Part shown: positions 42,148 through 51,960 of the stretch, piece after piece
Numbering within the stretch: the stretch's first letter is position 1
Layout of the letters: each line of letters begins with the position of its first letter
DNA from: a virus
Reading direction: 5' to 3' (one strand)
Virus record (IMG/VR): IMGVR_UViG_3300034073_002585
Coordinates: 90,193 to 154,192 of that record
DNA: 64,000 nt
Program-made: the position numbers and the translations under genes
Notes under the pieces: generated by a model
Seen by the model: only the letters and a program-made list of their open reading frames with translations
The model's database searches: none
What the model was told of the DNA's origin: nothing

Positions 42148-43978
42148 TAAAACTAGCTCCCCAGCCGCCTACGCTTTTTACGTTTACTGTACCCTCTACC
42201 CACGTTCCAGCTTGTCTAACATACGCAGTCCCATTGGCCCATGCCGAACCATTCCACACTTTAACGTATCCACCAGCTGACTCTACCGTGATAGTTAGCG
42301 TGCTTGTATCTAAGGTTTCGTCAGAAGCATTGGTTGCTCTAATTTTAAAATTATATGTGTCTGGGACTGTAGGGGTTCCAGTTAGCTCTCCTGTAGAGGT
42401 ATTTAGTGTTATCCCTGGAGGCAGTGAGCCTTCAATAATGGAATATGTAACAGTAGGGCCCTCTACAACACTTACCCCATCAGAATATGAAGTGTCCTGA
42501 GTTGCCACACTGCTGGCTAACACTGCACTAGACCACACAAGGCTGGCGTCTAATACCTCAATCTCGAACGAGACGCCTCCTGGTGTTTCACTGTCTGCAT
42601 TGTATGGAGTAACGGTAAAGGACGCTGTTCCGTATGCGGTAGGTGTTCCAGACACGGTAGCTTGCGCAAATCCTGAAGTACTAGTAGCACCCGAAAAAGA
42701 GAGGCCAGCTATCGGTAGGTCTCCGTCATTCCATGAGGCAACGTACTGCGCTGATATAGTGTCGCTATAGTAACTACCTTTTCTTGCAGTATTTGTTAGC
42801 GAAGAGTCCAACCAAACTGGAATTCTAGGAGCAACATAAAATGATATGGTCTTAGAGTCGCCCTCTTCGCCCTCAGAATTGACTGGTGTAGCTGTAATAC
42901 TAACTACCCCGCTTGCGGTGGGGGTGCCGTACATCGCTAAAGCATTTTGATTAAAGTCAGGTATTGTCATCCAAGATGGTTGACCACTCACTAGCCAAAC
43001 ATTTACGTTATTAGCACTTATGCCATCACTCCAATAGACGCCAATTCTCCCGCTTGGTAGGGTTTCGTCTGTCCAAGTAGGTAAAGCTTGTTTAAATTCG
43101 AAGGTATCAGTACTGTCTGTACTGCCTCCATCGCCAGTTGCCCTTACGGTTATAGTTTTAGTTCCGCTAGTACCTGCGCTAAATGTTCCTGTTAAAGTTG
43201 CATAGCTTCCGTAGTCGTTTAGGGATATGCCGCTAGGTGCCGTTACTAGAGAATATGAAGTAGTATCTGATGCTTGTATGTAGTCATAGAAACTGTCTCC
43301 AACCCTGTGGATAGTGTAGTCATCCACACCGTTCGAAAAAACTGGAGCTGGGACATTGGCAGTCCAGCTTGCAGTTAGGGTTACGGTTGAGTCTGTTGTA
43401 TATGAAGCACCAGCGCCACCGACATTTGTAGCCCCGTTGAGCCACCCGTTGAACGTATATCCGCTCCTGCTTGGGGTTGGTAGAGTGATGCTGTCCCCGT
43501 GAGCTGATTTAGTCGAAGCTGTACCTACAGTTCCGCCGTTTGCATCAAACGTGATGGTGTAGATGTTTGGGAAGTTAATTCGAGTGTACCCAGAAACAGG
43601 GGCCCTAGTGTTGTTTGGTACGTAGGATGCATCAGTAACGGCGTCTACTATTCCAAATGTATCAAAATACTTTGTACCATCAGCATTGTGACTAGTCACT
43701 CTGTCAGTGACCCTACATATCTCTATCTGGCTATTTTTTGCCAAAGTAAATTGCTGATTTGCACTAGCAACGGATACATCAGAACCACCGCTATTTACAG
43801 TTATGTCACCAGTTAATGTCCAGGATGAGAAGTTATTATTAGTGGAAAAAAGAACAAGCCACATAGTAATGTAAGACCTGTTATTGGCAGCATCGGTATA
43901 CCCGCTATATCCAACGGAAACGCTAAAGCCCCTAGAGTCGTAACTACCTCTAGCTATGCTGCCACTAAAATTTGCCAT
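42140..43978 (-). CDS. Ig-repeat virion adhesin (InlB B-repeat + putative Ig domains)
   Basis: YTITFDANGG...LPTPSRSGYTFNGW; multiple GTPT/LPPGITL Ig repeats; C-terminal VKVWNGSAW repeats. Confidence 0.75.
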   Translation of the reverse strand: MANFSGSIARGSYDSRGFSVSVGYSGYTDAANNRSYITMWLVLFSTNNNFSSWTLTGDITVNSGGSDVSVASANQQFTLAKNSQIEICRVTDRVTSHNADGTKYFDTFGIVDAVTDASYVPNNTRAPVSGYTRINFPNIYTITFDANGGTVGTASTKSAHGDSITLPTPSRSGYTFNGWLNGATNVGGAGASYTTDSTVTLTASWTANVPAPVFSNGVDDYTIHRVGDSFYDYIQASDTTSYSLVTAPSGISLNDYGSYATLTGTFSAGTSGTKTITVRATGDGGSTDSTDTFEFKQALPTWTDETLPSGRIGVYWSDGISANNVNVWLVSGQPSWMTIPDFNQNALAMYGTPTASGVVSITATPVNSEGEEGDSKTISFYVAPRIPVWLDSSLTNTARKGSYYSDTISAQYVASWNDGDLPIAGLSFSGATSTSGFAQATVSGTPTAYGTASFTVTPYNADSETPGGVSFEIEVLDASLVWSSAVLASSVATQDTSYSDGVSVVEGPTVTYSIIEGSLPPGITLNTSTGELTGTPTVPDTYNFKIRATNASDETLDTSTLTITVESAGGYVKVWNGSAWANGTAYVRQAGTWVEGTVNVKSVGGWGASFTN

Positions 43979-45726
43979 TAGAAGCTAATCCAGATATCTC
44001 CAGTGTTTGCACTTCCTGGCTCTGTGGTTCCGATATAAATTCTCGGATAAGTGTTCCCAGCTGAGTAGTAGGCATAGCCTCCAGATAGAGAAATAGTGTT
44101 AGAAGAAATGCTAACAGGTGCAGTATTGGAGTATGCTGCAGGCCCCGTAGGACCCGTAGGGCCCGTAGGACCCGTAGGCCCTGTTGTTCCTGTGGGTCCT
44201 GTAGGGCCTGTAACTGTAGAGTCTGCACCCGTAGGCCCCGTAGGTCCAGTAGGCCCTACTTCGCCCTGTGGACCAGTGTCTCCAGTGCTGCCCGTAGGTC
44301 CAGTAGGCCCTACTTCGCCCTGTGGACCAGTGTCTCCAGTGCTGCCCGTAGGTCCAGTAGGCCCTACTTCGCCCTGTGGACCAGTGTCTCCAGTAGCGCC
44401 AGTCAAACCAATTTCGCCCTGAATACCCTGCTCACCTTGTGGGCCTGTCGGACCAGTATCGCCCGTAGCGCCTGTGGGACCAGTCGGGCCTTCTGGCAGA
44501 GTGAAATCAAAAACTGCGGAATATGAGTTGCCAGAGTTTACTACGGCAGCTTCACTTCCTGCTAAGCCTGTAGTTACTGTTCCAACGGAGACAGTAGCTG
44601 CGTCTCCTGTAGCACCAGTAGGTCCTGTATCCCCAGTTGCTCCCGTAGGGCCCTGCAAACTTCCCGCATTTTCCCAGGTGGATGTATTATCGGCCCAGAA
44701 GTAAAGACTTCCAGAAACTATATAGTTATCACCGACGGCACCACTGGGGTGTGCAGTTGATAACTCTTCTGGGGTATCGTAATATCCTAGAATTTCAACT
44801 CCAGAGCCCTGAGGACCCGTAGGACCAGTAGGTCCAGTTGGCCCCGTATCTCCTGTGGCACCAGTGTCTCCTGTTGCTCCAGTTGGTCCTATTTCTCCTT
44901 GTGGTCCAGTTGGACCTGCTTCGCCAGTATCTCCAGTAGCACCAGTAGGACCAGTAGGTCCCTGAGGGATAGTAAAATCAAATATAGCTACGGCAGTGTT
45001 ACCAGAGTTGCTTACTGATGCTTCTGAACCAGGCATACCTGTCTGGGTTGTTCCAACTGATATAGTTGCCGCATCTCCTGTAGCCCCTGTAGGTCCAATC
45101 GGGCCAGTATCGCCAGTAGCTCCTGTCGGACCAGTAGGGCCAGTTACGTTAGAGTCTGCCCCTGTCGCACCAGTAGGCCCAGTTGGACCAGTAGCACCCG
45201 TGGGTCCAGTTGGTCCTGTTACATTAGAGGCTGCTCCCTGTGGGCCAGTAGGACCTGTGGGGCCTGTAGGACCAGTTGGACCAGTTATGCTCAGTCCAGC
45301 TGCTCCCTGGGCTCCGTCAGCTCCAGCTGGTCCAGTAGGCCCAGTTGGACCAGTAGCACCAGTAGGACCAGTAATGCTTAACCCAGCGGTACCCTGGGGT
45401 CCAGTAGCGCCAGTAGGACCTGTAGGACCTGTAGGACCTGTGTCTCCATCTAAACCGTTGGCCCCATCGGCCCCTGCTGGTCCTGTCGCACCAGTAGGCC
45501 CAGTACCTCCAGCTTGACCATCCGCGCCTGTCGGGCCAGTAGGACCTGGAACGGTAGAGTCGGCTCCACTTGGTCCCGTAGGTCCTGTAGCACCTGTGGG
45601 CCCAGTTGGCCCTTGAGTAGCAGAGTTAGTTAAAGCCTTCCAAACATTGCCATCCCACTGCCAGGTGTAATCACCTGCAGTGTATGTTTCATTTAGACTA
45701 GGACTGTCTGGAAAATTTATGGCCAT
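43978..45726 (-). CDS. collagen-like fibre protein (582 aa)
   Basis: Long G-X-Y (GPT/GAT) tracts; N-terminal FPDSP...WQWDGNVW; C-terminal TTEP...GDIWISF. Confidence 0.9.
44237..44394. repeat. three near-perfect 54-bp tandem repeats in the collagen gene
   Basis: Unit cccgtaggtccagtaggccctacttcgccctgtggaccagtgtctccagtgctg. Confidence 0.85.
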
Positions 45727-51586: not shown

Positions 51587-51960
51587 TATCTGGTTACCTC
51601 AGCTCTCACAATAAACTTCCCTTGAACAATACGAGTAGTTTCGCCTCTAGAAGACTCTACTTCTACGTCATATACGTAAGTTCCTGGCTCGTATGCAGCC
51701 ATATCTGCAGGCGGAATTAGTAGAGTGACTGTCCCTGTAGAGCCGCCAACTGCTAAATACCCATTTTCTGTAGTATATTCAGCAACAACTACAGTGTTGG
51801 GGTCTCTAGTTACCCCGTTAAATGTTCTTACCTGCATACGAGCCACAAAACCTGCAAGGCTAATAGGCGTGCGAGCGGAGTTTTTGACTGTAAAGACCGT
51901 ATTTACAGTCGCGCCTTGGTCCACAACCATATCGTGAACGTTTCCGCGGAGATTTGCCAT
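51586..51960 (-). CDS. fibre anchor/collar-like beta-sandwich protein
   Basis: DQGAT...L.G..ARMQVR...YVYDVEV...TRIVQG.F.V..EVTR; TAATG-coupled to the largest collagen gene. Confidence 0.65.

Follow-up and report, generated by a model that had tools for sequence, protein, structure and literature searches.

The collagen fibre operon and its modules

The window analysed here is the last 64 kb (64,000 nucleotides) of a 154,192-bp IMG/VR virus record (IMGVR_UViG_3300034073_002585) that has direct terminal repeats and is rated complete. Its minus strand holds a fibre operon of seven genes, in the order p124, p834, p449, p364, p277, p582 and p612, in which three collagen proteins begin with a small module, A, and two (p834 and p449) contain internal copies of a second module, B. 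Comparison with related phages suggests that A and B are the plugs and sockets of a single branched side fibre. All features below lie on the minus strand, and positions are those of the window. Stop and start share one base at three junctions, namely p124/p834 (base 51586, common to the p834 ATG and the p124 stop), p834/p449 (base 49082) and p582/p612.

The first gene encodes p124 (51586..51960), a protein of 124 amino acids (aa) assigned as an Ig-like collar or anchor protein from phrog_3304, AlphaFold and Foldseek. The putative trunk fibre p834 (49082..51586) has no A and is built, in order, of B1, a further module C, B2, a globular head, a short collagen stretch and a C-terminal hairpin ending DGGTP. 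The sequence-only reading of this locus had described p834 as coupled to the anchor gene, devoid of the start shared by the other collagens and provided with two B copies, and the coordinates of the open reading frames (ORFs) and the division of p834 into Gly-X-Y runs and interruptions agree with that description. The p834 head (aa 634-784, 49235..49687) is a non-collagen block with only a weak Pfam match to BclA_C, below the cutoff (E 0.064). Next comes p449 (47733..49082), the putative branch or adapter fibre, consisting of A-ii, 41 triplets, B3, 36 triplets and a 142-aa head; no mutual similarity was found between this head and that of p834, and its AlphaFold model was too poor for classification. 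Two putative leaf fibres, p364 (46627..47721; A-iii, C, 43 triplets, C and a C-terminal half-module) and p582 (43978..45726; A-i, D, C, D and a C-terminal half-module), are each followed by the gene of a putative tip protein. These are p277 (45783..46616), with a He_PIG Ig domain (Pfam PF05345), an (F/Y)FPP repeat and three C-terminal hairpins, and the putative adhesin p612 (42140..43978), with Flg_new and He_PIG domains (Pfam) and likewise three C-terminal hairpins. The Pfam collagen model PF01391 scores 174 bits on p834, 142 on p582, 118 on p449 and 80 on p364 against a cutoff of 27.2, and uninterrupted Gly-X-Y runs reach 43 triplets. Matches in the ESM Atlas were confined to unnamed viral collagen clusters.

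Module A occupies the first 36-39 residues of p449, p364 and p582, beginning at residue 1, as expected from the shared start FPxxPxxG/N...WxW(N/D)GxxW noted earlier, and it takes the same position in all branch proteins of relatives. The copies are A-ii in p449 (aa 1-38, 48969..49082, 62 bits), A-iii in p364 (aa 1-39, 47605..47721, 59 bits) and A-i in p582 (aa 1-36, 45619..45726, 60 bits), the last two named after their nearest reference subtype. Module B is found in p834 as B1 (aa 266-307, 50666..50791, 77 bits, of the subtype ending EVNANRIG) and B2 (aa 494-535, 49982..50107, 74 bits, ending VATADQG), and the third copy proposed for p449 was located at aa 161-202 as B3 (48477..48602, 71 bits, of the subtype ending ETIVGEVG). 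Neither module occurs here by chance, since profile hidden Markov models (HMMs) of A and B, run on all ORFs of 40 aa or more throughout the 154-kb genome, matched strongly at these sites only (A at 59-62 bits with E about 1e-17, B at 71-77 bits with E about 1e-21 to 1e-23).

Three further elements extend the earlier description. Module C, of 47 aa, is present once in p834 (aa 329-375, 50462..50602), twice in p364 and once in p582; the p834 copy is an A-like meander lying in-line in the fibre as a node with no partner. Module D, of 36 aa, interrupts the collagen of p582 twice (44491-44598 and 44962-45069) with the pattern ATxSVGT-x-TTG-x-x-GS-x-A-x-V-x-NSGN...FDF-x-IP; it also occurs once in many trunks of relatives, and its count tracks neither A nor B. 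The third element is a C-terminal half-B (...GDIWI-stop) on both p364 and p582.

The AlphaFold model of p449 is confident for A and B only. A is modelled as three strands (predicted local distance difference test, pLDDT, 85-94) and B as one strand plus a three-strand meander (pLDDT 90-93). The A profile also matches C at 21-26 bits, and C therefore contains an A-like meander in-line in the helix. From residue patterns and modelled secondary structure, A, B and C appear to be variants of one small beta-meander, the fold common to A and B being a prediction. Statistical homology between A and B was tried and abandoned, as hhalign aligned only 13 columns at a probability of 5.5%. For B (model residues 156-206), 50 of 57 residues could be aligned to the trimerisation domain of collagen XVIII (PDB 9bnb; VIA-align Z 3.8, root-mean-square deviation 3.6), a weak match lying below the level at which structural matches are trustworthy. 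Homology to the T4 foldon, which was the first idea, was also rejected: the A and B profiles, searched against every chain in the PDB up to E 10, matched no fibritin or foldon-fusion chain, and there was no Pfam match. None of A, B, C and D is covered by a Pfam family; PHROGs places the proteins in tail-fibre families, with phrog_3449 matching the A start. Outside the window, the same genome has three weak B/A-like motifs (G000:C1:3209-3466, 3479-5251 and 41950-42225), each close to the N-terminus of its ORF (86, 591 and 92 aa) and with the pattern FPATAE-GD/GE-LF-x-RSD...Y-x-Y-x-G-x-x-W; equivalents of two of these ORFs (about 80 aa and 580-800 aa) were seen in four of the five relatives scanned.

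At the proximal end, p124 matched phrog_3304, 'L-shaped tail fiber protein assembly', at E 1.9e-9. Its AlphaFold model (pLDDT 83) found its best Foldseek matches in the T5 tail tip (7qg9, chains J/L) and the DT57C baseplate (8hqz, chains Q/T), at E 7e-7 and template modelling (TM) scores of 0.63-0.64. The matched chains have 139-140 residues and we take them to be the p132 collar protein, the search output giving no chain names. The earlier label of anchor gene thus holds at the level of fold, the T5 and DT57C collar protein being the best match, and p124 has the attributes of a p132-type protein, that is an Ig-like fold, a length of about 125-140 aa and resemblance to p132. In T5, the collar is a p132 dodecamer, and some 50 residues at the N-terminus of pb1 serve to graft the three side fibres onto it (PMC10038345). 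The trunk begins with a 15-residue peptide unlike A, and its N-terminus is nearly invariant across relatives; this conservation, the adjacency of the two genes and the p124/p834 start/stop overlap point towards a p124 ring onto which trunk N-termini would be grafted. At the other end, every trunk closes with ...DGGTP (in the window at 49085-49180, p834 aa 803-834), preceded by either a GTTGQ-x-L-x-K-x-S-x-x-DYD-x-x-W or a Q-x-GD-x-L-x-Y-N...W-x-N hairpin motif.

At the distal ends, the protein that follows a fibre terminating in a half-module is in every case an Ig-domain protein without collagen, bearing three hairpins in tandem at its C-terminus. Such pairs were seen in more than 20 loci and fall into two matched subtypes. 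Half-modules of the form ...SGM..GDIWI-x-x-P go with p277-like proteins, as for the p364 C-terminus (46630-46704) and p277, and those of the form ...EPGS..GDIWISF go with p612-like proteins, as for the p582 C-terminus (43981-44049) and p612. The arrangement resembles a complementation of strands in which three chains of the fibre and one of the tip protein take part, and shows split beta modules as joints within the same operon, the same principle as in A and B.

The primase/helicase encoded beside the fibre genes is closest to that of Microbacterium phages of about 190 kb (46-47% identity) and has 52% identity to that of the Actinomycetia phage DSL-LC01, and an actinobacterial host is therefore likely. 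Directly upstream of p124 lie about 15 tandem 2-oxoglutarate-Fe(II)/prolyl-hydroxylase-like paralogues (52052-63668); the same oxygenase array precedes p124 in close relatives whose contigs extend upstream.

Counts and subtypes of the proposed plugs and sockets in relatives

Searches with p124 and an alignment of its relatives retrieved 19 + 9 loci from IMG/VR and 47 metagenome loci. Close relatives have a common gene order of oxygenase array, p124, trunk, up to three more collagens with non-collagen tip genes (0-3), and primase. In 25 loci the whole cluster from p124 to the primase is covered, and counting with the module HMMs gave 13 different architectures. The sequence-only reading had proposed checking whether plug and socket numbers co-vary among related phages, and co-variation is what we observed: there are as many A-proteins as B modules in all 13 architectures, from 0/0 to 3/3. 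The number of A equals that of C in only two of the 13. When B counts were shuffled among architectures, ignoring relatedness, the full match had a frequency of 5e-6, i.e. 5 per million.

The architectures are given here with the modules of each protein in brackets, A/B counts in parentheses and proteins joined by a hyphen. They run from [C] in L018 and L040 (0/0) through single-branch forms, all 1/1, namely [BC]-[ADCD] in L017/L051 with the variant [BC]-[ADCDb] in L047, [BC]-[ACD] in L067, [BCD]-[AC] in L039, [BCD]-[ACC] in L058 and [CB]-[A] in L069. Two plugs and two sockets (2/2) are found as [CB]-[AB]-[ACC] in L014, [BCDB]-[AC]-[A] in L015, [BC]-[ACCB]-[AC] in L006 and [BCDB]-[A]-[ACC] in L007. 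Three of each (3/3) are present in L037, as [BCDB]-[ABC]-[ACC]-[A], and in the window, as [BCB]-[AB]-[ACC]-[ADCD]; L004, L010, L066 and L049 are also 3/3. Scans of the whole records of five relatives (G001-G005) revealed no further strong A or B.

Balance is retained while fibre sets change. In a tree of p124, identical or near-identical proteins are associated with different fibre sets, every one of them balanced, as in L047 (1/1) and L049 (3/3), in L004 (3/3) and L058 (1/1), and in L018 (0/0), L069 (1/1) and L014 (2/2). DNA comparison showed cassette replacement between conserved modules. The L018 trunk is the L014 trunk minus the B2 segment, and three downstream genes have been lost separately, so that two events are needed to account for this locus. 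A different route is seen in L040, whose only collagen (L040:10339-13086) is a natural in-frame fusion of a trunk stem with the branch found in L039 (L039:12219-13922). Its residues 392-916, a stretch of 525 aa, are 89% identical to that branch as it runs on from residue 39, just behind A. The fusion removed B1, the remaining trunk and the plug in one step, and it shows a branch that still works when covalently joined to the trunk stem. The comparison thereby shows two ways in which such fibres evolve, the swapping of cassettes and a recombination between collagens through which a branch becomes part of the trunk.

The modules fall into subtypes, to which each was assigned by its nearest reference from the 3/3 loci. 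The B subtypes are B1 (...EVNANRIG), B2 (...EVATTEQG), B3 (...ETIVGEVG) and rarer forms, and the A subtypes are A-i/iv, A-ii and A-iii. Their co-occurrence is perfect: trunks with only B1 are accompanied by an A-i/iv branch (five lineages), those with only B2 by an A-ii branch (L069 and L012), and B3 accompanies A-iii. A strongly divergent trunk node, B4, is found in L007-9 and L016, and in the complete loci L007-9 it occurs with a divergent A on a mini-fibre of 87-91 aa. The tree proposed earlier, from anchor to trunk to two branches and one sub-branch, is matched by this pairing, which would join trunk B1 to p582, trunk B2 to p449 and B3 of p449 to p364. The pairing of B1 with p582 is not accounted for by adjacency, as the node is at one end of the cluster and the p582 gene at the other; and since L048 carries A-i on the gene directly after the trunk, gene order is not fixed.

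Apparent mismatches in the counts led us to predict hidden partners, and both kinds were then found. L037 was first read as 2A/3B before its third plug was recognised in a 78-aa ORF consisting of A and a short helix, and the same small protein occurs in L015. Mini plugs of this first kind, A plus a short amphipathic helix in about 74-78 aa, lie at L015:15478-15720 and L037:9051-9284; those of a second kind, A plus 5-7 triplets and a trunk-type GGTTGQ...DGGTP tail in 87-91 aa, lie at L007:12773-13033 and L008:14510-14782. Since they are conserved, these genes are probably real, and their products would fill a socket without adding a long fibre.

The other mismatches were surpluses of B, seen in the cultured relative DSL-LC01 (2A/3B) and in L074/L077 (1A/2B; for this exception, no other, longer contig carries those proteins). 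What comes after the last B-protein in all of these is a large protein, not a collagen, whose N-terminus is Gly-rich; an N-terminus of this type is present in no balanced locus and is absent from the genome of the window. A further 73 loci were fetched with the subtype alignments of B as seeds, among which a large family has 3A/4B. All 11 surplus-B loci inspected have the last [A,B] adapter directly followed by a protein of about 590-1050 aa starting MPGFLGG...GGEI-FPKEF. The protein, of the general form MPGFLGG(S/G)n..GGEI-FPKEFIDPVTKLRVS, is found for example at L214:16383-18857, L201:16492-18966, L252:13343-15835 and, in DSL-LC01, L094:8797-11271 (minus strand), and is a candidate second type of plug. 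Among the 70 pooled loci with enough flank, 38 had equal numbers of A and B and no Gly-rich protein, 17 had one surplus B and exactly one Gly-rich protein, two had one surplus B without it, and 13 had a surplus of A. The number of B thus equals that of A plus Gly-rich proteins in 55 of the 70.

Beyond this group, A-type starts were found in more than 513 IMG/VR stretches. The commonest unit is a B-bearing protein directly followed by an A-capped protein, including fibres without collagen; the arrangement BB-A-A was seen in five loci, and B is internal in nearly all partner proteins. Equality of A and B also holds in the complete cyanophage genomes P-SSM2 (4/4) and ACG-2014f (1/1). One cousin with the same trunk start (L134:4290-13549) has three A-proteins and two detected B, and is either a true exception or contains one B too divergent for the profile.

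A probable branched fibre and its alternatives

The explanation best supported by these comparisons, and one that we consider fairly probable, is that the cluster builds one branched collagen-based side fibre. A p124 ring resembling the Ig collar of T5 p132 would hold the conserved N-terminal peptide of a trimeric p834 trunk. Two beta-meander nodes of 40 residues, B1 and B2, break the collagen helix of the trunk. Each B node is proposed to be specific for one secondary fibre and to dock the beta-meander A that caps the N-terminus of this fibre, with B1 taking p582 through A-i and B2 taking p449 through A-ii, while node B3 of p449 would in turn take p364 through A-iii. The half-modules of p364 and p582 would be completed by the C-terminal hairpins of p277 and p612. 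With the heads of the trunk and of p449, and with p277 and p612, as many as four different distal ends could in this manner be carried by one anchor. Co-variation is indirect evidence for physical binding of A to B; the binding itself, the stoichiometry and geometry of the joint, and the binding of the host by the distal ends are inferred.

Several observations weigh against this explanation. Its support is comparative-genomic; the monomer model of p449 has a predicted TM score (pTM) of 0.23 and no structural match spans A and B together. The relatives are not phylogenetically independent. The L040 fusion shows that a single collagen-collagen recombination can delete a B and the next A together, a neutral route to balance, so some balanced changes need no selection. 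The linkers between A and collagen are only 4-8 residues long, which constrains how a trimeric cap could sit on a three-fold node. A is in surplus in 13 of the 70 wider loci, and some A-proteins have no B within 10 kb. Among cyanophages, A and B are unequal in S-CAM4 (1/2), S-CAM7 (3/2), S-CRM01 (2-4/9), S-B68 (2/10) and S-H34 (7-9/11-14), and a strict equality extended to T4-like cyanophages was dropped since it fails in these five; in several of the T4-like cyanophages (S-B68, S-H34) B-like modules stand in tandem arrays. B-like modules are therefore a general fibre element, for which the socket role is well supported only at isolated nodes in this clade and its wider kin. Lastly, A, B and C are all small beta modules of one kind, C sits in-line with no partner and B weakly resembles a collagen trimerisation domain, so that a purely in-cis role is plausible.

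This last point leads to the principal competitor, which we judge unlikely but the most serious of those considered. Here A, B and C would be nothing but knots that trimerise and register their own chains in cis, in the manner of the foldon or the collagen XVIII NC1 domain, A-fibres would attach singly to the baseplate or collar, and counts would match through inheritance of linked cassettes. In the monomer model A and B are each folded, with confidence, into a small beta-meander that stands by itself, the alignment of B with the collagen XVIII trimerisation domain and the partnerless, A-like C fit such a role, and so do the unmatched tandem arrays of the cyanophages; cassette swaps and the one-step co-deletion of B and A are documented. 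Left unexplained, however, is the balance of all 13 architectures. With the order B-B-A-B-A-A, only five of the 21 possible contiguous deletions are balanced by our own count, and a filter against unbalanced variants is therefore still needed. Knots acting in cis likewise fail to account for subtype-specific pairing, for the retention of mini-proteins that are plug only, for the restriction of the Gly-rich protein to surplus-B loci (17 of 17) and for the two separate deletions in L018.

Contact between A and B might also be transient and restricted to assembly, the B node nucleating or registering trimerisation of the matching A-fibre, which is later placed elsewhere on the virion. Collagen helices require nucleation domains, and the co-variation data would be the same as for a branched fibre. 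An example of such a domain is PfC of EPclA (PMC3368898). Yet A, predicted to fold by itself, could nucleate the helix of its own fibre, A-fibres display no further module by which they might attach, and plug-only proteins of 74-91 aa would be purposeless, and we find this alternative improbable. Fibres joined end to end in series as in T4 gp34-37, with A docking on the C-terminal end of the preceding protein, would suit the gene order, the start/stop coupling and the conserved hairpin tail ending DGGTP on all trunks, but this ranks lowest and is very improbable, as the window has three A-fibres for two free C-termini (trunk and p449, the ends of p364 and p582 being taken by p277 and p612), the tail is kept in a locus without A (L018), and A counts follow the number of B, which is internal in nearly all partners, and not the number of ends.

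A broader proposition may be put forward tentatively, at a little less than even weight: A, B, the Gly-rich MPGFLGG N-terminus and the half-module/hairpin pairs could form a general, subtype-coded set of connectors with which many uncultured phages (actinophages, cyanophages and others) build nested, many-tipped fibre trees out of parts encoded by separate genes. Fibre topology would then be readable from the genome, and orthogonal joints of 40 residues would be available for collagen and other trimeric fibres.

Relation to known branched and collagen-like fibres

Branched receptor-binding complexes allow some phages to carry several host specificities and are known mainly for tailspikes with gp10-like domains. 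The present proposal, if true, would add a second and much smaller joint, located inside collagen triple helices and nested to two levels. It would also provide a genomic rule, that sockets equal plug proteins with matched subtypes, from which the fibre architecture of uncultured phages could be predicted from sequence, and the connectors could be transplanted between trimeric fibres in the engineering of phage host range in laboratory systems or in designed collagen materials. Neither the modules nor branched collagen fibres were described in anything that our literature searches retrieved, and no Pfam model or solved structure of the modules was found.

Single elements of the system have counterparts elsewhere. 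The likeness to T5 lies at the proximal end, where p124 finds its best structural match in the p132 fold and its gene lies immediately before that of the fibre, to which it is coupled (PMC10038345; PDB 7qg9); T5 pb1, in contrast, is neither collagen-like nor branched, and the sequence identity between p124 and p132 is only about 19%. The T4 fibritin foldon and the collagen XVIII NC1 domain are, like the modules described here, hairpins or meanders of 30-55 residues beside a triple helix, but they are terminal, have no partner protein and show no sequence similarity to A or B, whose profiles matched no fibritin or foldon chain of the PDB at E up to 10. The collagen-like side-tail-fibre proteins EPclA-D of E. 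coli O157 prophages (PMC3368898) and BclA-type Gly-Pro-Thr (GPT) collagens are similar in being trimeric phage fibres with GPT-rich triplets and collagen capped by non-collagen modules. The EPclA-D proteins differ in their capping domains PfN, PCoil, PfC and Pf2, none of which was detected here by Pfam, and in being single, unbranched proteins.

Branching itself is best compared with two tailspike systems, and the view taken in the sequence-only reading, that the fibre is analogous to these and yet different, is borne out: the logic is that of the receptor-binding protein (RBP) systems of Klebsiella podophages and Ackermannviridae, and the parts differ. A shared N-terminal docking peptide on secondary RBPs, characteristic of both the KP32 and CBA120 types, is represented here by module A. 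Pfam and PHROGs scans of all seven proteins reported only collagen, He_PIG, Flg_new and fibre PHROGs, and no gp10-like (XD) domain, no fold search of the trunk having been made. In the CBA120-type Ackermannviridae, the tailspike proteins TSP1-4 form a branched complex (PMC11414711, PMC11721090) in which, as in the proposed fibre, several receptor-binding proteins carry one another in a hierarchy that is fixed and members must be gained and lost without disrupting the whole; their tailspikes carry large XD/gp10-like N-terminal domains, and there is no collagen, no small repeated node and no such count rule. The podophages KP32, K11 and KP34 of Klebsiella have an anchor and a branching domain on RBP1 and a conserved N-terminal docking peptide on RBP2 (PMC6872550, PMC13352976). 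They share with the present operon a primary fibre fixed to the tail and equipped with an internal docking element, secondary RBPs with a short conserved N-terminus and variable distal parts, and adjacent genes. The podophage joint is a T4 gp10-like branching domain that carries beta-helical tailspikes and whose binding has been validated experimentally, whereas the joints proposed here would be beta-meander nodes of 40 residues set within collagen helices; they would come in three or more matched subtypes and be nested two levels deep.

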